DNA of 64,000 bases. Source: Flavobacteriales bacterium. Its GTDB lineage: Bacteria > Bacteroidota > Bacteroidia > Flavobacteriales_F > PHOS-HE28. Below are positions 18,697-64,000 of this stretch, piece by piece (positions within the stretch are counted from its first letter, which is position 1; every line of letters starts with the position of its first letter). The notes beneath the pieces are model-generated. The model did not search any database and was not told the origin of the DNA. It saw only the letters and a list, made by a program, of their open reading frames with translations. Location of the stretch: contig JBGTES010000002.1 of NCBI GenBank assembly GCA_041747675.1, forward strand, positions 66,538-130,537, written 5' to 3'. The position numbers were made by a program, and so were the translations under genes.

Positions 18697-18839
18697 GGTC
18701 GTTCGCATGGGCGGCAAAGGTAGTGTCCTTCAAGCTTTCAGACTTGTTGATCGAACTCCTGGCAGAGGAGTTCCATCCACAGCGGTCCACCGGCCGTCAA
18801 CCATCCAGCGATCAGCCGGGCAAAGAGTAAGTTCGCACC

Positions 18840-25104: not shown

Positions 25105-25200
25105 AAGTGGGATCGGTTCTTCCTTGGCAGCATTACCTGCCCAGGTTCTGCGGGTGTGATCTCAGCCGGCCTATTGGCGGGCACCCCGGGGATGACGGGG
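25105..25200 (-). promoter_or_regulatory. TPP (thiamin pyrophosphate) riboswitch, THI-box aptamer with RBS-sequestering expression platform
   Basis: Minus-strand read: CCCCGGGGUGCCC-GCCAAUAGGCCGG-CUGAGA-UCACACCC-GCAGAACCUGGGCAGGUAAUGCUGCC-AAGGAAG. This aligns block-for-block with the E. coli thiM aptamer (GGGGUGCCC...CUGAGA...ACCC...ACCUGAUCUGGAUAAUGCCAGCGUAGGGAAG). Downstream 8-bp stem CCUCCGUG...CACGGAGG (25093-25066) occludes a GGAGG 3 nt before the AUG at 25063. Confidence 0.75.
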
Positions 25201-25271
25201 CGAAGGTAATCAGATGATGGGGCGATCAGATGATCAGATGATGGGGGCTGATCGATGCGCCTCCCACCCCA

Positions 25272-25925
25272 TCAACTCGCCGCCCCGCGCATCATCGCCT
25301 CCACCACATCCACCGCCTTCTGCACGCGCTCCTCAGGGTCGCCTTCGATGATCACGTAAGGGAAGCCGTAGGCCTTCAGCTCGCGCTCCCACACGTCGAA
25401 CAGCCGGTCGCGGTCGTGCGGGTTCTCGCGCTGCGGGTCGGGCTCCCAGGGGATGTCCGGCCGGCAGAGCAGGCGCAGGTCGTACCTCAGCACACGCACC
25501 AAGTGTTCGATCTCCGGGTGTACCTGTCCGAATTTCTCCTGGCTCCAGATCTTGATGTTGAGAATGTCGGTGTCGAAGAACATCGGCTTGCGGGGTGCGC
25601 GCCTGGCGATCGGGTCCTTGCCATGAATGGCCTGGTGGTGTTCCTCACCGAACCGGGCCGCATCGCCGAACCACTGCGCATGGCCCCGGGCCATCTCCAC
25701 CAGGTCCTCTTCGTTGTAGGGCCGGTCCAGTTCATCGAGGTACTCGCGCGTGGCGTCCCCGACGTATCCGCCCATGGTGCGGAACATCAGTTGCTCGGCG
25801 AGGGTGGTCTTGCCAGAGCTCTCGGGGCCTACGATCGCGATGCGCAAGGGCAGCCTGTTCTGTTGGGAGAGCCAAGTTATCGAGCTGGCGGAAATGAAAT
25901 GTTGGTATCGCCATCCGCAAGGCAA
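25272..25925 (-). CDS. NadR-type (AAA_28) P-loop kinase, ribosylnicotinamide-kinase-like, paralog 1
   Basis: Walker A IAIVGPESSGKTTLAEQL, Walker B-like FFDTDILN. Overall architecture of the NadR C-terminal RNK domain. Confidence 0.65.
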   Translation of the reverse strand: MPCGWRYQHFISASSITWLSQQNRLPLRIAIVGPESSGKTTLAEQLMFRTMGGYVGDATREYLDELDRPYNEEDLVEMARGHAQWFGDAARFGEEHHQAIHGKDPIARRAPRKPMFFDTDILNIKIWSQEKFGQVHPEIEHLVRVLRYDLRLLCRPDIPWEPDPQRENPHDRDRLFDVWERELKAYGFPYVIIEGDPEERVQKAVDVVEAMMRGAAS

Positions 25926-31663: not shown

Positions 31664-33316
<1,653 letters not shown>

Positions 33317-33387
33317 GTGCGCTGGACCGATCGAGGCATTCTCTGTGAACGCGCAGCTTTCCATAGCGATGTAGTATTTGTCCAAAG

Positions 33388-33447
33388 TCTTATGTCCTAT
33401 GCCTGACCCCCTACGTGGACGATCGGGGTCAGGCATAGGGCATAAGA
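33388..33447 (+). repeat. Perfect 23-bp inverted repeat (hairpin) in the atpD-atpC intercistronic spacer
   Basis: TCTTATGTCCTATGCCTGACCCC - loop CTACGTGGACGATC - GGGGTCAGGCATAGGGCATAAGA. One G-U wobble. No U-tract on either side. Confidence 0.8.
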
Positions 33448-33469
33448 CAACAGTCAACAGACATTCCTC

Positions 33470-42962: not shown

Positions 42963-43934
42963 TCAGTTCCCCTTGCGTTCCTCCCTGGCCTTCTCCTTGA
43001 AATACTTCCGGAAGAACCAGTTGCGCTGTAGTGCGCGCAGGTTCTCCTCCAGCGTGGCGCTGCTCTTTTCCAGGTTCGCCATGGTGCGGCGCACATCGCC
43101 TGCGGCGGCAGTATCATGCGCCAGGGTGTACGCCGTGCCACCAGGTGTATTGAGGCCTTTCGCGAAACGATCCACCTGGGAGGAGGCATGGGCCAGTGTA
43201 TCGGCCATGCGCTGCATCGCAGTAAGCCCATCGCGCACCTGTTGCTCCGTGGCGGGGTCGCTCACCAGCATGCCCAGCACGCCCTTGCCCGCCTTCATGT
43301 CGGCGATCATCGCGTTCGCATTGGCTGTTACGGCACGCACATGCTCCACGGAACGCTGCAGGTCCGTGATCGAACCACGCATTTCCATGGCGAACACGGA
43401 GTCGCTCAGCATGTGAATGAGACCACCCGGCTGCGTGAGGCGCTTGCTCAGTTCCTTGAGATCATCGGTGATCTCGGCCATGTTCATGTTCGTGCGGTCC
43501 AGTGTGCGCATCATCTGGTCGGTGTCCAGCGGTATGCTGCTATCCAGGACGGTACCATCCACGATGGCGTTCCCATTCCCCGTGCTTGAGGCGATGTTCA
43601 CAAGTTTGTTGCCCATAAGCCCATCGGTGCCCAGGCTGGCGATGGCGTTGTCGCGGATGTACGCCGCATCCTCCTCGCGTATCGCCATGGTCACCAGCAC
43701 GGTGGTATCGTTCATGATCCGCACCTCCTCCACCGTGCCCACGTTGATGCCGGCGTAACGCACGTTGTTGCCTGGTCTGAGACCGCCGGCATTCTGGAAG
43801 TTGGTGCTGATCTCCACTGTGCTGCGGAACAAATTGCGTTTGCTACCGAGCATGTACAGGCCCACGACCAGCAGGACGGAGCCGGCGAGGACGAAGAGAC
43901 CGAGTTTGATGTGGTCACCGGGTTTGGAAGCCAT
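42963..43934 (-). CDS. mlaD: MlaD/MCE-domain substrate-binding protein of an Mla-type ABC system
   Basis: N-terminal TM helix then the MCE domain (RSTVEISTNFQNAGGLRPGNNVRYAGINVGTVEEV), followed by an extended helical C-terminal region. Confidence 0.85.
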   Translation of the reverse strand: MASKPGDHIKLGLFVLAGSVLLVVGLYMLGSKRNLFRSTVEISTNFQNAGGLRPGNNVRYAGINVGTVEEVRIMNDTTVLVTMAIREEDAAYIRDNAIASLGTDGLMGNKLVNIASSTGNGNAIVDGTVLDSSIPLDTDQMMRTLDRTNMNMAEITDDLKELSKRLTQPGGLIHMLSDSVFAMEMRGSITDLQRSVEHVRAVTANANAMIADMKAGKGVLGMLVSDPATEQQVRDGLTAMQRMADTLAHASSQVDRFAKGLNTPGGTAYTLAHDTAAAGDVRRTMANLEKSSATLEENLRALQRNWFFRKYFKEKAREERKGN

Positions 43935-43947
43935 GGGTGTGGTGGGC

Positions 43948-44050
43948 GGTTGAGGGGTTGAGGGGTTGAGGGGTTGAAGGTGGTTGAGGGTTGGAGGTGG
44001 TTGAGGGTTGGGGGTGGTTGAGGGTTGGGTGGTTGAGGGTTGAGGGGTTG
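43948..44050. repeat. Tandem array of about 11 GGTTGAGGG-like 8-10 nt units in the mlaF-mlaD intercistronic spacer, plus an inverted partial copy at 44082-44095
   Basis: ggttgagggGttgagggGttgagggGttgaaggTggttgagggttggaggtggttgagggttgggggtggttgagggttgggtggttgagggttgagggg. Read on the minus (coding) strand it is CCCTCAACC repeats immediately 5' of the mlaD ATG. Confidence 0.85.
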
Positions 44051-44107
44051 TGTCACCTGGGAACTTTCAACTTATCACCTTCTCAACCCCTCAACTTCAA
44101 CAGGTCT

Positions 44108-44890
44108 CTACATGAAAATGAAGAATTTCTTGACGAGTTCGTCCTCCGAGGCGAGTAGGTCATCGTAGGTGCCTTCCAGATAGTTCTTCCCCTCGTGTAA
44201 CAAGGCGATCCGGTTGGCGGCCAGCTTGGCGACGTGCAGATCGTGCGAGATGATGATGGACGATGTGCCATAGGTCCGTTGCAGTTCCAGGATAAGTTCC
44301 ACGATCTCCTTGCCACTGATGGGATCGAGGCCGGTGGTGGGTTCGTCGTAGAGCACGATCTCCGGTTTCAGGATCAGGGTGCGGGCCAGGCCGATGCGCC
44401 GCTTCATGCCGCCGCTGAGTTCGCTGGGATATTTGTCGCGGGTATTCGGCAGACCTACGGCAGTAAGGACCTCCTCCACGAGCTCATCCACGTTCTGCCC
44501 ACCCTTGTCGATCCAATGTCTGCGCAGTGGGAACTCCAGGTTCTCCTTCACCGTCATGCTGTCGTAGAGCGCGCTGCTCTGGAAGAGGAAGCCGATCTTC
44601 ACGCGGATGTGATCCAGCGCGTCCTGGTCCATGGTAAGGATGTCCTCGCCCAGTACGGTGATACTGCCCGCATCGGGATCAAGCAACCGCACGATGCACT
44701 TGATCAGCACGCTCTTGCCACTGCCGCTCTTGCCCAGCACCATCAGGTTCTCCTTGCGGCGCACATCGAGGTCGAAGCCCTTCAGCACATCGAGGTCCCC
44801 GAACGACTTGGTGAGCCCGCGTATGCTGATCACCACCTCGGCATTCTCGTCCGGTGGGGCTTCGATGATATCGGGCTTTTGTTCCTCCAT
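44108..44890 (-). CDS. mlaF: ABC transporter ATP-binding protein (MlaF-like)
   Basis: Walker A GKSGSGKS, signature LSGGMKRR, Walker B LYDEPTTGLD. ATG (MEEQKPDIIE) overlaps the mlaE stop as ATGA. The track ORF is extended 47 aa upstream. Confidence 0.85.
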   Translation of the reverse strand: MEEQKPDIIEAPPDENAEVVISIRGLTKSFGDLDVLKGFDLDVRRKENLMVLGKSGSGKSVLIKCIVRLLDPDAGSITVLGEDILTMDQDALDHIRVKIGFLFQSSALYDSMTVKENLEFPLRRHWIDKGGQNVDELVEEVLTAVGLPNTRDKYPSELSGGMKRRIGLARTLILKPEIVLYDEPTTGLDPISGKEIVELILELQRTYGTSSIIISHDLHVAKLAANRIALLHEGKNYLEGTYDDLLASEDELVKKFFIFM

Positions 44891-45642
44891 CAGTTGAGTC
44901 CCATGAAATCGGTGATCTGCACAGCGATGAGGTCCAGGATGAAGATCAGCAGGGAGGCCACCACCACCGCGCTGTGTGCGGCCTGGCCCACACCTTCGGT
45001 ACCCTTCAAAGTGTTGTAGCCCTTGAAACAACCCACCACACCGATCGCCAGCCCGAAGAAGTAGCTCTTGATGAACGCGGGGATGAAATCCGAGAACGCA
45101 AGCGATTCGAAGACCTGGCGATAGAACAAGTTCCAGCTCACCGAGTCCTTGATGTTCACACCGATCCAGCTGGCCCAGATGGAGATGCCCATGGCCAGCA
45201 CCACCAGGATGGGCAGGGTGAGGATGGTGCTCCAGATGCGGGTGACCACCAGATAACGGAAAGGGTTGGTACCGCTCACCTCCATGGCGTCGATCTGTTC
45301 GGTCACCTTCATGCTGCCCAGTTCGGCACCCATGCTGCTGCCGATCTTACCCGCACAGATGAGGGCGGTGATCACCGGGGCGATCTCGCGCACCATGCTG
45401 ATGGCCACCATGGCCGGAAGCATGCTCTCCGCGCCGAAGTTGGCCAGGGTGGGCCTGCTTTGTACGGTGAGCACCAGTCCCATGATAAAAGCCGTGATCC
45501 CCACCAGGGGCAGGGAGCGGTAGCCATTCTCTGTGCATTGCCGCAATAATTCACGCCATTCAAAGCGTGGATGGAAGGCATTGGTGAAGAAACGCCCCGT
45601 AAAATGGGCGATACTCCCCACTTCATCCAGCAAGGTCTTCAT
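44890..45642 (-). CDS. mlaE: ABC transporter permease (MlaE-like)
   Basis: About 250 aa, 5-6 TM helices, typical MlaE/YrbE sequence (VTEQIDAMEVSGTNPFRYLVVTRIW). ATG at 45642. Confidence 0.85.
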   Translation of the reverse strand: MKTLLDEVGSIAHFTGRFFTNAFHPRFEWRELLRQCTENGYRSLPLVGITAFIMGLVLTVQSRPTLANFGAESMLPAMVAISMVREIAPVITALICAGKIGSSMGAELGSMKVTEQIDAMEVSGTNPFRYLVVTRIWSTILTLPILVVLAMGISIWASWIGVNIKDSVSWNLFYRQVFESLAFSDFIPAFIKSYFFGLAIGVVGCFKGYNTLKGTEGVGQAAHSAVVVASLLIFILDLIAVQITDFMGLN

Positions 45643-45880
45643 GGTCGAATGCGGCTTGGACACGTTGCTGGGTGGGAAGTTAAGTGCCGGGGCTGCCTGC
45701 GAAAATGACGGATCGCATCAACGCAAAAAGGGAGTTGGCCCAAGGACCGTGCTGCGAACCACACTTGGGACCGGTATAAGGCCCGTTCCGCCGATCACAC
45801 CATCGGCGCTAACGATACACCGGTGGCCATGCAACACATACGGCCCCTGCTACCTTCGCCCCCCTACCAACCTGCACGGC

Positions 45881-46822
45881 ATGCTGCGACTGGAGGGCAT
45901 CGAGAAACGATTCGGGACCTATACGGCCCTGGATGGCGTGAGCATGGAGGTGCAGGCAGGTCGCATCTTCGGTTTGCTGGGACCCAATGGGGCAGGCAAG
46001 ACCACGCTGATCCGCATCATCACCCGCATCACGGGCCCTGACGCCGGACGCGTGCTACTGGACGGACATGAGATGCGGCCGGAGGACGTGGCCCGCATGG
46101 GCTACCTGCCCGAGGAGCGTGGACTATACAAGAAGATGAAGGTGGGCGAGCAGGCCCTTTACCTGGCACGGCTGAAGGGCATGAGCCGGGCCGAGGCCAC
46201 CAGACGCCTCAAAGAGTGGTTCGCACGTTGGGAGATCGATGGATGGTGGAACAAGAAGGTGGAGGAGTTGAGCAAGGGCATGGCCCAGAAAGTACAATTC
46301 ATCATCACCGTACTGCACGGGCCCAGGTTGCTGATCCTGGACGAGCCCTTCAGTGGCTTCGACCCCATCAATGCGGAGCTGATCCGCACCGAGATCCTGC
46401 GTCTGCGCGATGATGGCGTGACCGTGATGCTGAGCACCCACAACATGGGCAGTGTGGAGGAATTGTGCGACGACATCGGCCTGATCGACAAGGCACGGCT
46501 GGTGCTGCATGGCCCGGTGAACGAGGTGCGCCGCCGCTATGCCACGGACACCTATCAGATCGAATTCCAAGGTACCGCGGTTGCGCTGGCGAATGCTCTT
46601 GGCTTCAGCGGGGAGCTGGTGCATACCGAAGATCGCGGTGAATGGACCCGGGCACGGGTGCGCATCACCAAAAGTGCGGACCTGAACCAGGTGCTGCGGC
46701 AGCTGCTACCGGCGGTGCGTATCCACGGCGTGCAGGAAGAGATCCCCCGCATGCACGACATCTTCATCCGCGCTGTAAGTGAACAGGAACCCACCCATGT
46801 GGTGGCGGATATGACCGAATGA
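45881..46822 (+). CDS. ABC transporter ATP-binding protein (ABC-2 / GldA-like subfamily)
   Basis: ATG verified at 45881 (MLRLEGIEKRFGTYTALDGVSMEV). Walker A GPNGAGKTT, signature LSKGMAQK, Walker B LLILDEPFSGFD. The track ORF starts 116 aa upstream in the same frame and is not credible. Confidence 0.85.
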   Translation: MLRLEGIEKRFGTYTALDGVSMEVQAGRIFGLLGPNGAGKTTLIRIITRITGPDAGRVLLDGHEMRPEDVARMGYLPEERGLYKKMKVGEQALYLARLKGMSRAEATRRLKEWFARWEIDGWWNKKVEELSKGMAQKVQFIITVLHGPRLLILDEPFSGFDPINAELIRTEILRLRDDGVTVMLSTHNMGSVEELCDDIGLIDKARLVLHGPVNEVRRRYATDTYQIEFQGTAVALANALGFSGELVHTEDRGEWTRARVRITKSADLNQVLRQLLPAVRIHGVQEEIPRMHDIFIRAVSEQEPTHVVADMTE

Positions 46823-46830
46823 GCAGGCCA

Positions 46831-46942
46831 TGTGCAAAAGTGGAAAAGTGCAAAAGTGGAATGATGCCAGGGGGCTGTTGCCCAGCAACGGTGTCTTCGA
46901 CCCTTGCACGATATCAACCTTCCACTTTTGCACCTTTCCACT
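46831..46942. repeat. Intercistronic palindromic repeat element, copy 1 (unit GTGCAAAAGTGGAAAA)
   Basis: Left arm tGTGCAAAAGTGGAAAAGTGCAAAAGTGGAA (two direct 16-nt units). Right arm TTCCACTTTTGCACCTTTCCAC is its near-perfect reverse complement. The 57-nt loop holds a small GGGC/GCCC hairpin. Sits between the ABC ATPase stop and the permease start. Confidence 0.75.
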
Positions 46943-46966
46943 CCAACACCCTTCGCGCAGCGAACA

Positions 46967-48283
46967 ATGAACAAGATCCTCCTCATCCTCCAGCGCGAGT
47001 TCATCACCCGCGTGCGCAAGCCCAGCTTCATCATCATGACATTGCTTGGGCCGCTGCTGATCGCCGGGGGTATCACGCTGATGGTATACCTGGGCATGCA
47101 GGGTCGTAGTGAGGAACACGTGCTGGTGATCGATCGCGAGCAGGTGATCGGCACCAAGCTGCGCAGCAATGACAGGGTGAAATTCTTCGTGGATCACCAG
47201 CTCTGGTCCGACAGCGCTTTTCTTGAAAGCCCCTACACGGTGCGGGTGATGCTGCTGGACAACGTGCTCAACGCGCCACAGGCCGACCTCTACTATAAGG
47301 AATTGCCAGGTGCACCCGCACAAACGGTGATCCGAAATGAGATCGAGAAGGCCCTGGAACTGGCCAAGCTCCAAAGCGAAGGCATCGATGAGGAGGCGTA
47401 CCGTCGCGTGCGCAAACCGCTCGACCTGAAACTTTTCGACATCAAAAAGGTGGGTGAGGAATCGCTTGAGCAGGAACGCGCCGGTATCGGTTTCTTCTTC
47501 GGTTACTTCATGTTCTTTTTCATTTTCCTTTACGGCATCCAGGTGATGCGTGGGGTGATGGAGGAGAAGCAGAATCGCGTGGTGGAGGTGATCATCAGCA
47601 GCGTGCGGCCCTTCCAGTTGATGATGGGCAAGATCACCGGCATCGCACTGGTAGGTCTCACCCAGTTCATCCTCTGGATCGTGGTCACCACCGCACTGGT
47701 CACCGCCGGAAGCGCCCTGCTGATGAAGGATCGTTTCGATCCCGCTGCACTGGCTGAAACACCCATGACCGCCGGCATGAAGGAGCAGTTGGACAAGCAG
47801 GCCATGGCCATGCCCGATGTGAACGACGTACAGATCCTGAAGGCCCTGGCGCAGATCAACATTCCCGTGACCCTGTTGATCTTCTTTTTCTTCTTCATCA
47901 GCGGCTACCTGCTGTACAGCTCGCTGCTGGCGGCCATCGGTAGTGCGGTGGACAGCGAGGCGGAGACCCAGCAGTTCATGTTCCCCGTCACCCTGCCCAT
48001 GATCCTGGCCATATTCGTGGCGCAGATGGCCGTCTTCAACCCGGGAGCGCCGGCCGTGATGTGGTGCAGCTTCATCCCATTCACCAGTCCCATCGTGATG
48101 ATGGTGCGCGTGGTGATGGGTAACGTGCCCCTTTGGCAGTTGCTGCTCAGCATGGGCTTGCTGGTGGCCACCTTCCTCTTCACCACCTGGCTTGCCGGCC
48201 GCATCTACCGCACCGGCATCCTCATGTATGGCAAGAAGGCGAGCTGGAAGGAGATCGGGAAGTGGCTCTTGTACAAAGGCTAG
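46967..48283 (+). CDS. ABC-2 type transporter permease
   Basis: ATG at 46967 (MNKILLILQREFITRVRKPSFIIMTLLGPLLIAGG). N-terminal TM, large extracytoplasmic loop, then 5 TM helices. Partner of the upstream ATPase. Confidence 0.75.
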   Translation: MNKILLILQREFITRVRKPSFIIMTLLGPLLIAGGITLMVYLGMQGRSEEHVLVIDREQVIGTKLRSNDRVKFFVDHQLWSDSAFLESPYTVRVMLLDNVLNAPQADLYYKELPGAPAQTVIRNEIEKALELAKLQSEGIDEEAYRRVRKPLDLKLFDIKKVGEESLEQERAGIGFFFGYFMFFFIFLYGIQVMRGVMEEKQNRVVEVIISSVRPFQLMMGKITGIALVGLTQFILWIVVTTALVTAGSALLMKDRFDPAALAETPMTAGMKEQLDKQAMAMPDVNDVQILKALAQINIPVTLLIFFFFFISGYLLYSSLLAAIGSAVDSEAETQQFMFPVTLPMILAIFVAQMAVFNPGAPAVMWCSFIPFTSPIVMMVRVVMGNVPLWQLLLSMGLLVATFLFTTWLAGRIYRTGILMYGKKASWKEIGKWLLYKG

Positions 48284-58594: not shown

Positions 58595-58945
58595 ATGCCC
58601 TACAAGGAGAGGACGGTCGGCAAGCTCTACTGGACCATCGGCGAGGTGGCCTCTGAACTGGGTGTGAACACCTCCACGATCCGTTACTGGGAAAAGGAAT
58701 TCGGCACTGTGCGGCCCAAGCGCACCGAGCGTGGCGACCGGCACTATACGGGCAAAGACATCGAGCAGCTCAAACGCATACAGCACCTATTGAAGGAGAA
58801 AGGCTTCACGTTGCAAGGTGCAAAGGATCAATTGCGAACGGGTGCTGCACATGCTGCCCCCGGGCCCATTGACCGCATCGCCGATCTGCGAGAACGCCTG
58901 CTGGCTGTGCGCAAAGCGCTGGTGGTCCTGCGCAACAAACTGTAG
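58595..58945 (+). CDS. MerR-family transcriptional regulator
   Basis: HTH YWTIGEVASELGVNTSTIRYWEKEFG, then a coiled-coil dimerisation helix. Confidence 0.75.
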   Translation: MPYKERTVGKLYWTIGEVASELGVNTSTIRYWEKEFGTVRPKRTERGDRHYTGKDIEQLKRIQHLLKEKGFTLQGAKDQLRTGAAHAAPGPIDRIADLRERLLAVRKALVVLRNKL

Positions 58946-59922: not shown

Positions 59923-60003
59923 GTTCCAGTCGCTTAAGCCTGATGGCGAAAGCGGACCGCGAAGGTAGGAGCCGTCCAACCTCGGCCCCTACCTTCGCTG
60001 CCC

Positions 60004-62842: not shown

Positions 62843-63592
62843 TCAAAGCGTGCTGTTAAGCAGCTTCCCGCTCCCGATCAACTTGTGCAGGTATGGCCGC
62901 GTGAGGGTGTTGTGGATGGCCTGCACGTGATTCATGTTGTGGCAGTCACTGCCCAGGAGTTCGTAGTAGCCCGCGTCGATCATGCGCTCGGCGAGCTGTT
63001 TGGCCTGCGGCCCGTAGGCACCGGATAAGGCGATCAGGTTCAGTTGGAACAACACGCCACGCTCTTTCAATTCCGTGAACTTGCTGAAGTCATTGTACCA
63101 GAAGCTGTAGCGCTCGGGATGGGCCAGTACAGGATGATAGCCCTGGGTCTGCATCTGGAAGACCACCTGCCGCAACATGGCCGGCTCGCCGATGAAGGGG
63201 ACCTCGAAGAGCAGCAAGCGCTCGCCGAAGGTGAGCACCGCACCAGCGGTCACCTGCTCCTGAAGCGCATGGTCCAGGTAGTACTCGGCAGCAGCATCCA
63301 CTTCGATGTCAAGCCCCACGCTGCGGACCTCGGCTCGTAGTTTCTCCAGCCCACCGAGGATGATCGCCGGCGAGTTGCGGTAGCCATCGGCCATGCTGTG
63401 CGGGGTGGTGATCACCTTGCTGTAACCCAGTGCACGCATGGCGGTGAGCATCTCGATACTTTGCGCAAGGGTCTGTGCGCCATCATCGATCCCGGGGATC
63501 ATGTGTGAATGCACATCGGTACCCAACACGCCAAGATCCGCAGGCCCGAGCTCCGGTTCCTTCTTGCCGAATATGTTGGTGAGTAGGCCCAT
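62843..63592 (-). CDS. PHP-domain Mn-dependent protein-tyrosine phosphatase (CpsB/YwqE-like)
   Basis: DVHSHMIPGIDDGA N-terminal metal-binding motif and later HPERY, characteristic of CpsB/CapC/YwqE. Sits next to an rfbB gene. Confidence 0.75.
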   Translation of the reverse strand: MGLLTNIFGKKEPELGPADLGVLGTDVHSHMIPGIDDGAQTLAQSIEMLTAMRALGYSKVITTPHSMADGYRNSPAIILGGLEKLRAEVRSVGLDIEVDAAAEYYLDHALQEQVTAGAVLTFGERLLLFEVPFIGEPAMLRQVVFQMQTQGYHPVLAHPERYSFWYNDFSKFTELKERGVLFQLNLIALSGAYGPQAKQLAERMIDAGYYELLGSDCHNMNHVQAIHNTLTRPYLHKLIGSGKLLNSTL

Positions 63593-63602
63593 TCCTTAGG
63601 AA

Positions 63603-63698
63603 GAGGGTGCAAAGGTGGAAAAGTGCGAGGGTGGAAATGTGCAAAGGTGCGCGCATGAACGGCCACCTTGCACTGTTCCACCTTTCCACTCTTGCACA
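63603..63698. repeat. Intercistronic palindromic repeat element, copy 2 (GTGCAAAGGTGGAAAA family)
   Basis: GGTGCAAAGGTGGAAAAGTGCGAGGGTGGAAATGTGCAAAGGTG - CGCGCATGAACGGC - CACCTTGCACTGTTCCACCTTTCCACTCTTGCACAC. Same unit and palindromic architecture as 46831-46942. Lies between rfbB and the PHP phosphatase. Confidence 0.7.
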
Positions 63699-63708
63699 CG
63701 TTCCATCA

Positions 63709-64000
63709 TCACCCAGCGTAATGCGCCGCGTAATACTTCTGATACGCCCCGCTCGTCACATGCTCCAGCCACTCCGTATTGGCCAGGTACCAGTCCACCG
63801 TGCGCTCCAGGCCTTCCTCGAAGGTGATGCCCGGCTTCCACCCCAGCTCACGCTCGATCATGCCCGCGTCGATCGCGTAGCGCAGGTCGTGCCCGGCACG
63901 GTCGGTGACGTAGGTGATCAACTTCGCACTCTCCCCTTCGGCACGACCCAGTTTGCGGTCCATGATGCCACAGAGCAAGTGTATCAGGTCGATGTTCTTC
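63709..64000 (-). CDS. rfbB: dTDP-glucose 4,6-dehydratase, partial (N-terminus beyond window end)
   Basis: C-terminal region ...DRAGHDLRYAIDAGMIERELGWKPGITFEEGLERTVDWYLANTEWLEHV is the conserved RmlB C-terminus. The ORF runs off the window edge. Confidence 0.8.
   Translation of the reverse strand, partial: KNIDLIHLLCGIMDRKLGRAEGESAKLITYVTDRAGHDLRYAIDAGMIERELGWKPGITFEEGLERTVDWYLANTEWLEHVTSGAYQKYYAAHYAG

Follow-up and report, generated by a model that had tools for sequence, protein, structure and literature searches.

The 64-kb stretch of DNA analysed here ("the window"), from the genome of an uncultured Flavobacteriales bacterium with about 60% G+C, harbors two intergenic palindromes built from the same octamer. 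Locus 1 (46832-46942) lies between the genes of an ABC transporter ATPase and its permease, and locus 2 (63604-63697) between an rfbB-like gene and cpsB, which encodes a tyrosine phosphatase. Each of them is best explained as a simple-sequence palindrome that evolves locally inside an operon and would most likely serve as an intercistronic RNA processing or stability element, an explanation to which we give about an even chance. Both look like fast-evolving, locally grown palindromes and not like mobile repeats of the repetitive extragenic palindrome (REP) or miniature inverted-repeat transposable element (MITE) type. The feature is real and of unusual appearance, and is best filed with intergenic simple-sequence repeats and intercistronic hairpins, not with a family resembling REPs or bacterial interspersed mosaic elements (BIMEs). 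Where copies of these elements in the source genome are counted below, the count covers the 64-kb window.

Anatomy and predicted folding of the elements

At both loci, the repeat unit is the octamer GTGSAAAR, which occurs three to five times in tandem and is followed by a spacer and then by reverse-complement units. An earlier note, made from the sequence of the window, had placed such an arrangement at nearly the same coordinates, inside operons and between genes of the same identities; these points hold, and the genes are co-directional at both loci. It had given the unit as GTGCAAA(A/G)GTGGAAA; the true unit is the octamer, and the 16-nt period that Tandem Repeats Finder (TRF) detects at both loci arises from the alternation of GTGC and GTGG. 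TRF reports periods of 8 or 16 with scores of 47-70 at the two loci, and of 107-133 at 43948-44050, within a sibling element described below. TRF and shuffled sequences together indicate tandem units of the 5-11-nt class that run beyond chance length, as in long simple sequence repeats. With up to two mismatches, GTGCAAARGTGGAAA is matched 9 times for 0.14 expected, a number that none of 100 shuffles reaches, and GTGSAAARGTGSAAA is matched 13 times for 0.46 expected. There is no third copy in the window: the sole extra match, at 58810, is coding and carries two mismatches.

The 5′ arm of locus 1 (46832-46866, + strand), delineated by TRF and by inverted-repeat and motif scans, consists of four tandem octamers, GTGCAAAA GTGGAAAA GTGCAAAA GTGGAAtg. 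It begins 10 nt past the ATPase stop codon, being preceded by TGA-gcaggccat. A unique core of 48 nt (46867-46914, + strand) follows, with its own inner stem-loop and an extra CCCTTGCAC unit (46901-46909, + strand). The 3′ arm (46915-46942, + strand), found by the inverted-repeat scan and the fold, reads cCTTCCAC TTTTGCAC CTTTCCAC; it is G-poor and includes CACTTTTG, a fit to nAnnTTTG. The stem is followed by TCCAACACCC, and a G-poor leader of 24 nt (46943-46966, + strand), mostly single-stranded in the fold, separates the hairpin from the permease ATG. The spacer totals 144 nt in the window. Upstream, the ABC transporter ATPase ORF (45533-46822, + strand; PF00005) comprises ABC_tran plus DrrA1-3_C domains and stops at 46820-46822; the real start of the gene is probably located inside this ORF. 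Downstream, the ABC-2 family permease gene (46967-48283, + strand; PF12698) starts with the ATG at 46967.

Locus 2 is encoded on the − strand and reads, in the mRNA sense, TGA TGA-tggaacgt, 5′ arm, 14-nt loop, 3′ arm, 14 nt and ATG, with 116 nt between the rfbB-like stop and the cpsB ATG. Its 5′ arm (63666-63697, inverted-repeat scan and fold) is composed of GTGCAAGA GTGGAAAG GTGGAACA GTGCAAGG. The loop of 14 nt (63652-63665) matches only contigs of the same organism in the Logan collection (L001 and L002). The 3′ arm (63604-63651, TRF and fold) is composed of CACCTTTGCAC ATTTCCAC CCTCGCAC TTTTCCAC CTTTGCAC, the final CACCTTTG ending 17 nt upstream of the cpsB ATG, and the stem is followed by CCTCTTCC. 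The flanking genes, also on the − strand, are the 3′ end of the rfbB-like dTDP-glucose 4,6-dehydratase/epimerase gene (63709-64000, stop 63709-63711, then a second TGA) and the gene of the CpsB/CapC-type (PHP) tyrosine phosphatase (62843-63592, PF19567), with its ATG at 63592.

The RNA hairpins are predicted at −58 kcal/mol (z −4.59) for locus 1 and −50.7 kcal/mol (z −5.10) for locus 2, and in neither case is any of 200 shuffles equally stable, in agreement with the long imperfect mRNA hairpin that the earlier note had anticipated. The predicted stems measure about 28-40 bp, and thus provide a double-stranded RNA (dsRNA) stem of at least about 20 bp, as in the hmw-type hairpin discussed below, transcription being assumed from the operon position. 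The elements also remain undescribed-looking: in gathering mode, Rfam reports tRNA only and no family at either element, and in E-value mode only generic miRNA-precursor hairpins, with 15-31 bits for thresholds of 62-105. A known RNA family was accordingly rejected as a candidate, as were a canonical terminator and a sigma-70 promoter, neither of which is reported at the elements. A strong GC-containing hairpin right after a stop codon might nevertheless suggest an intrinsic terminator or attenuator that reduces read-through into the downstream gene. This is the least probable of the explanations considered, as neither stem is followed by a T-run, a simple terminator scan reports no hairpin-plus-T-run at either element, and co-expression is expected for the downstream genes, whose products are partner subunits or pathway partners. 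At the level of short motifs, GAAAGGUGG resembles GAAAGGAGGUG in the manner of Shine-Dalgarno/anti-Shine-Dalgarno mimicry, a resemblance only.

A sibling element of different units (43948-44101, − strand) occupies the spacer (43935-44107) between the genes of an MlaF-like ATPase (44108-45031) and MlaD (42963-43934). It harbors about 12 GGTTGAGG units (+ strand), corresponding to a C-rich 3′ arm in the mRNA, which face 4-5 complementary units, and folds with z −6.6. On the + strand, which is the Mla template strand, the array at 43948-44050, (GGTTGAGG)n, reads GGGGTTGAGGGGTTGAGGGG, a canonical G-quadruplex-type motif. A GGTTGAGG-like unit is observed again in the relatives' loci L133 (15850-15957) and L130 (11315-11400).

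Orthologous junctions and the question of mobility

The ATPase-permease spacer is only 10 nt long in L123 (permease 87% identical) and 2 nt in L126 (80%), the two closest relatives. In L128 (permease 76%), it reaches 128 nt, with purine-rich GAAAGYTG units after the stop codon and G-free CAACAACC units before the ATG; these units are non-complementary and the spacer folds with z +1.26. In L130 (permease 72%), it is a C/A-rich segment of 97 nt. The element of locus 1 is therefore lineage-specific, the spacers of its relatives being short or otherwise built. Farther downstream, the gene that follows the permease in L126 (2267-2629) encodes a protein of the bAvd/23S-rRNA-intervening-sequence family, a position held by Ppx/GppA in the window. 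Members of this family are often tied to diversity-generating retroelements.

The rfbB-cpsB junction was compared in about 75 instances from relatives. The two genes are spaced by −4 to +3 nt (TGATG-type overlap) in about 37 of them, i.e., by the short stop/start distances that termination-reinitiation coupling requires (PMC10666635), and by 21-324 nt in about 27, where short C/T-rich units of many kinds make up the spacer. The sequence [C/T]A[C/G]CTTTG[C/T]AC, with the core CACCTTTGCAC, is retained 5-17 nt upstream of the ATG in at least ten different spacers. In the closest sub-lineage, consisting of the window, L143, L131 and L132, the spacers are related GTGxxAGx palindromes, in which the number and sequence of the units vary. 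Their arms co-vary: the unit sequences differ among orthologues, and each 3′ arm complements its own 5′ arm. The fold is strongest in L143 (z −9.8, a near-perfect stem of 38 bp), followed in this comparison by the window (z −4.4), and by L131 and L132 (z of about −2.1). The contigs L001 and L002, which stem from the same organism, show no length polymorphism relative to the window. As the L131, L132 and L143 orthologues grade into other repeat types or no spacer, they point to local growth and not to the insertion of a fixed element. The earlier note had allowed that the sequence might turn out to be ordinary conserved spacer; this it is not, although the orthologous junctions are not uniformly hairpin-forming either. 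Strict conservation of the hairpin at orthologous junctions was rejected, many spacers having z of about 0.

Other junctions display comparable variation. The MlaF-MlaD spacer of L123 is degenerate, G-rich and then C-rich at the same place, with z +1.09. At the Bax1-fabD junction of L201, a GTGGAAAG palindrome forms a perfect stem of 24 bp (z −5.7), where the window has an ordinary spacer of 75 nt. The elements also matter for annotation, as they create spurious ORFs and can push gene callers through the junction. In L133 (8862-10001), rfbB is called with 379 residues instead of the 352 seen elsewhere, 27 codons too long; in the alignment, the rfbB C-terminus takes up the 80 nt that precede the cpsB ATG and ends in a TGATG overlap. 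This alignment indicates that the extra length probably stems from an early start call, and that variable junctions can mislead annotation.

Such differences between sites invite the idea, also raised in the earlier note, of a REP/BIME-like or miniature mobile element, i.e., a non-autonomous GTGCAAAR-GTGGAAAR palindrome that would spread to new junctions of the genome by copy-and-paste. Presence and absence at a given site, as expected of a MITE, are indeed observed, with 144 nt at locus 1 against 10 and 2 nt in the relatives, and with the L201 palindrome against the ordinary spacer of the window; growth or loss of arrays in place would equally explain this pattern. Mobility would also account for the alternating 16-nt period common to both window copies, for the lack of the locus 1 spacer in both of the closest relatives, and for a similar palindrome at another junction in L201; furthermore, the locus 1 flanks GCAGGCCAT and GCAGCGAACA, a weak hint of duplication, loosely resemble the 10-nt spacer of a relative, GCATGGACAC. 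Some copy-and-insert spread is conceivable on account of the period and of the absence in relatives. The copies share nothing beyond the octamer units, however. Compared with the rest of the window and with about 2 Mb of fetched DNA, their cores or loops and their flanks match nothing else, and neither a conserved body, nor clear terminal inverted repeats beyond the units, nor a convincing target-site duplication is found. Diverged orthologues of locus 2 occupy the same position in relatives. The 478 kb of clade DNA contain only two further palindromes of this unit type, that of L143 at the orthologous junction and that of L201 at Bax1-fabD, and no link to a transposase is known. A mobile element is thus quite unlikely. 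REPs and BIMEs are likewise extragenic, often intercistronic, co-transcribed imperfect palindromes, thought to stabilise the upstream mRNA (PMC3733652). REPs, however, are 20-40 bp long, possess a conserved head and a family consensus, occur in hundreds of copies and are RAYT-linked (PMC3733652), whereas the arms of the window elements are repeat arrays of 28-48 nt without a GTAG/CGTC head, seen in two copies.

Spacer design and possible roles

Beyond the two loci, the folding of 59 co-directional spacers of 50-260 nt was surveyed in the window and in the loci of six relatives. Twenty of the 59 have z < −2 and 13 (22%) have z < −3. The sense-strand GC skew drops from +0.10 in the first 40% of the spacer to −0.24 in the last 40% (Wilcoxon p = 1.4e-5), the first part exceeding the last in 45 of 60 spacers. 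This shift makes a G-poor stretch before the start codon the rule in the clade, and many of these stretches are short tandem arrays. The pattern fits what is known of initiation in Bacteroidota, whose mRNAs lack Shine-Dalgarno sites and in which weak structure around the start favours initiation (PMC6847099). As the same design is found with unrelated units at other junctions, the window loci are one instance of how spacers are built throughout the clade.

A mechanism can be proposed on these grounds. Its starting point is a short C/T-rich, G-poor YTTTSCAC unit just upstream of the downstream start, which at rfbB-cpsB is the conserved core CACCTTTGCAC, resembling the −7 box TAnnTTTG. Slippage would have amplified this unit in tandem, and an inverted copy, GTGSAAAR, is located just past the upstream stop codon. 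The spacer, if co-transcribed, would fold into a hairpin of about 25-40 bp that loops out the sequence inserted between cistrons which are directly coupled (TGATG overlap) in many relatives. Its most likely action would be that of an intercistronic RNA processing or stability element. Long dsRNA stems are natural substrates of RNase III and barriers to 3′ exonucleases. The G-poor 3′ arm, for its part, would supply the downstream gene with an unstructured leader and possibly a weak internal promoter, and the gain or loss of units would retune expression, with a possible effect on fitness.

The best tested analogue is found in Haemophilus influenzae, where the hmw 5′-UTR (untranslated region) contains a long hairpin that RNase III cleaves and of which one arm is an (ATCTTTC)n repeat (PMC12721329). 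There too, a C/T-rich heptamer or octamer array pairs with a G-rich partner upstream of a gene; in hmw1A, RNase III cleavage has been shown to set expression, and the number of repeats matters (PMC12721329). The hmw1A hairpin differs, however, in lying in a promoter-proximal 5′-UTR and in having a single repeat arm, whereas the window elements are intercistronic and are candidates for RNase III processing and phase variation. A hairpin that sequesters the start region for translational coupling was rejected as an alternative: it fits the geometry of locus 2 and of the Mla element, and fails at locus 1, where 24 nt are left free.

Several observations weigh against a processing or stability element built in this manner. 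The locus 1 hairpin leaves 24 nt free before the ATG, hence the start region is not sequestered there. The rfbB-cpsB spacers of the other sub-lineages fold with z of about 0, no better than shuffles, and the relatives' MlaF-MlaD and ATPase-permease spacers (z +1.09 and +1.26, respectively) have no significant fold. The hairpin is thus not clade-wide at orthologous junctions, and the structure may not be needed. To these should be added the 16-nt period and the lineage-restricted presence of locus 1 discussed above, as well as, for the promoter component, a C at position −12 of the array units and the absence of a well-spaced −33 element, detailed below.

The main rival explanation is that of a neutral by-product, in which slippage and template-switch inversion would make spacer palindromes that are harmless self-folding inserts without function. 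At one and the same junction, the spacer length varies between 0 and 324 nt and the units are of many unrelated types, the hairpin is missing from many orthologous spacers, and permuted octamer arrays are as common as GTGSAAAR arrays in viral contigs (counts are given in the last section), all of which such a process would readily produce. It accounts less well for the 22% of co-directional spacers with z < −3, for arms that remain complementary while the units of orthologues change, and for a G-poor segment and a CTTTGCAC core that are conserved upstream of the ATG. Moreover, long near-perfect palindromes are normally unstable in bacteria. This by-product explanation is possible, though we consider it doubtful.

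The resemblance of the 3′-arm units to promoters suggests another role. The −7 box of the Bacteroidota sigma-A factor is TAnnTTTG, in which T−12, A−11, T−8 to T−6 and G−5 are nearly invariant, with transcription starting 4-5 nt downstream (PMC6847099). In the relatives' loci of the clade (L123, L128 and L130-L133), the density of TAnnTT[TC]G is 3.88 per kb in upstream regions read in sense and 0.01 per kb in coding sequence. In 17 of 19 cases the box is 4-24 nt away from the ATG, and it mostly ends 4-7 or 15-17 nt before it. Combined with a start 4-5 nt after the box, these distances imply many leaderless or very-short-leader mRNAs. The mRNAs of Flavobacterium johnsoniae and F. psychrophilum are mostly leadered. 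In the window, examples of the box are seen just upstream of the starts at 18708 (−), 60004 (+) and 18840 (+). Two divergent gene pairs are parted by a near-perfect palindrome of two back-to-back −7 boxes, one in the window (59954-60003) and one in L132 (16025-16073), where the palindrome CAAAGGTAGGGGCGCGAAATTTCGCGCCCCTACCTTTG belongs to an intergenic region of 49 nt in all.

The elements could by analogy be internal promoter cassettes, with tandem CACYTTTG units acting as reiterated −7 boxes, the downstream gene being expressed from a short-leader transcript and the inverted arm being an antisense or divergent copy. The 3′-arm units read nAnnTTTG (CACCTTTG, CACTTTTG), similar to the published Bacteroidota consensus (PMC6847099; PMC9723704), the cpsB ATG is preceded at 5-17 nt by a conserved [C/T]A[C/G]CTTTG, and the distance between the last unit and this ATG is typical of the clade's genuine boxes; the two-box palindromes of divergent pairs offer a natural precedent. 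The array units differ from the box, however, in having a C instead of the near-invariant T at −12 (cAnnTTTG), half of them are TTTC rather than TTTG, no well-spaced −33 element accompanies them, and their period of 8 or 16 nt is unlike the usual −33 to −7 spacing. In addition, the sibling units GGTTGAGG and GTGAGGT have no such box, and the box of locus 1 lies 36 nt from the ATG. A promoter cassette is therefore unlikely; given the missing −12 T and the TTTC units, a promoter role of the array is possible and unproven.

Returning to the processing or stability element, its significance would lie in the way junctions inside operons are built. If functional, the elements would show how high-G+C bacteria without Shine-Dalgarno sites construct and retune such junctions, which would switch from direct overlap of stop and start to a hairpin made of repeats and followed by a G-free leader, and back. 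This would provide a cheap and evolvable control of subunit ratios in transporters and envelope pathways. If they are a mutational by-product only, they remain the mark of a clade in whose spacers the slippage and inversion of octamers are unusually active. A bolder and very unlikely extension holds that high-GC Flavobacteriales possess a so far unrecognised class of self-renewing intercistronic elements, whose repeat-array arms would be kept complementary by a dedicated process such as template switching, gene conversion or RNase III-linked repeat dynamics. Such elements would seed new copies at tightly coupled stop/start junctions and act as tunable expression insulators, a processed hairpin together with a G-free leader or a −7 box taking the place of termination-reinitiation coupling.

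Related arrays in other lineages and minor observations

Short tandem repeats of similar size have been described in other bacteria, and long simple sequence repeats, the start-proximal TAACTGA repeats and the hmw hairpin are the known systems that the window elements resemble most. According to the account given in PMC4679880, the long simple sequence repeats of Mrazek et al. 2007, with units of 5-11 nt, and the cyanobacterial STRR heptamers share with the window arrays tandem non-coding units of 7-8 nt and a scattered distribution across lineages. A shift of unit number between relatives, as slippage would produce, is seen among the rfbB-cpsB orthologues and not between the window and the same-organism contigs. 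The window arrays differ from those repeats, as they appear in that account, in being octamers paired with an inverted copy as a hairpin between cistrons of one operon. The TAACTGA repeats of Beggiatoaceae, Cyanobacteria and some Bacteroidetes (MacGregor 2015, PMC4679880) are oriented short tandem units located a few to tens of nt before starts, in hosts or genes without Shine-Dalgarno sites, and a role in translation has been suggested for them (PMC4679880). The distance from the 3′ arm to the ATG is 24 nt at locus 1 and 14-17 nt at locus 2; for TAACTGA-type repeats, it is a few to about 40 nt, with many sets per genome. The TAACTGA unit is a different one, however, and its 169 direct sets, for one indirect (PMC4679880), contrast with the palindromic window elements, seen in two copies and not in hundreds.

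By extension, the arrays might be sites at which a protein (S1, Csp-like, or a regulator) binds the RNA or the DNA, or phase-variable contingency repeats that tune envelope genes. This possibility can draw on the start-proximal, oriented units, on the precedent of the TAACTGA proposal (PMC4679880), and on the envelope-related nature of the flanking genes (capsule phosphatase, Mla and ABC-2 exporter). Single-arm arrays of other phyla show an orientation bias in the same sense: among the matches listed, G-rich GTGSAAAR arrays predominate after stop codons (52 vs 19) and C-rich YTTTSCAC arrays within 60 nt upstream of ATGs (20 vs 8). The bias is no more than suggestive, since genes were called crudely and antisense ORFs may have produced artefacts. 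A candidate for the binding protein is not known, however, and the units change from junction to junction. The arrays, with three to five imperfect units, are short and thus weakly slippage-prone, and their length is constant in the same-organism contigs. Either version of this explanation is very improbable.

A wider search argues that the unit itself is not special. Among the matches listed, GTGSAAARGTGSAAARGTGS forms at least 120 stretches in Opitutae, Cloacimonadota, Acidobacteriota and Bacteroidota. In viral contigs, a collection different from that of the cross-phylum scan, arrays of three permuted units yield 26, 9 and 19 stretches for 15 with GTGSAAAR. The hits thus appear as generic octamer repeats, and a conserved cross-phylum GTGSAAAR family was rejected because permuted units are equally common in the viral collection.

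The same matches revealed a composite repeat that looks like a genuine dispersed structured family. It consists of GTGCAAAGGTGCAAAnn, a co-varying stem-loop of 4-5 bp (cggc..gccg, ggcc..ggcc or ggagc..gctcc) and GTGCAAARGTGCAAARGTGG, and is present in 22 copies among the matches listed (L011, L022, L025, L034, L038, L041, L043, L048, L051, L061, L071, L073, L074, L080, L083, L084, L090, L100, L108, L110, L116 and L122). Its carriers are mostly metagenome-assembled genomes of Opitutae/Verrucomicrobiota, with several copies per genome, i.e., from a phylum other than that of the window.

The window contains further small repeat structures. At 33387-33448, a hairpin of 24 bp with 96% complementarity, formed by GTCTTATGTCCTATGCCTGACCCC and its complement, is located about 70 nt past the end of a gene at 33316 and precedes a short ATP-synthase-epsilon-like ORF; in L130, apparently at the same junction, the atpC-like gene, which starts at 1207, is preceded by a hairpin built from another repeat. 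A small intergenic repeat or inverted repeat at 25191-25290 comprises GATGATGGGG and the complement CCCCATCA. Finally, a repeat and inverted-repeat structure made of TCAGTTG/TCAGATG (943-1013) lies beside the tRNA at 1028-1109.

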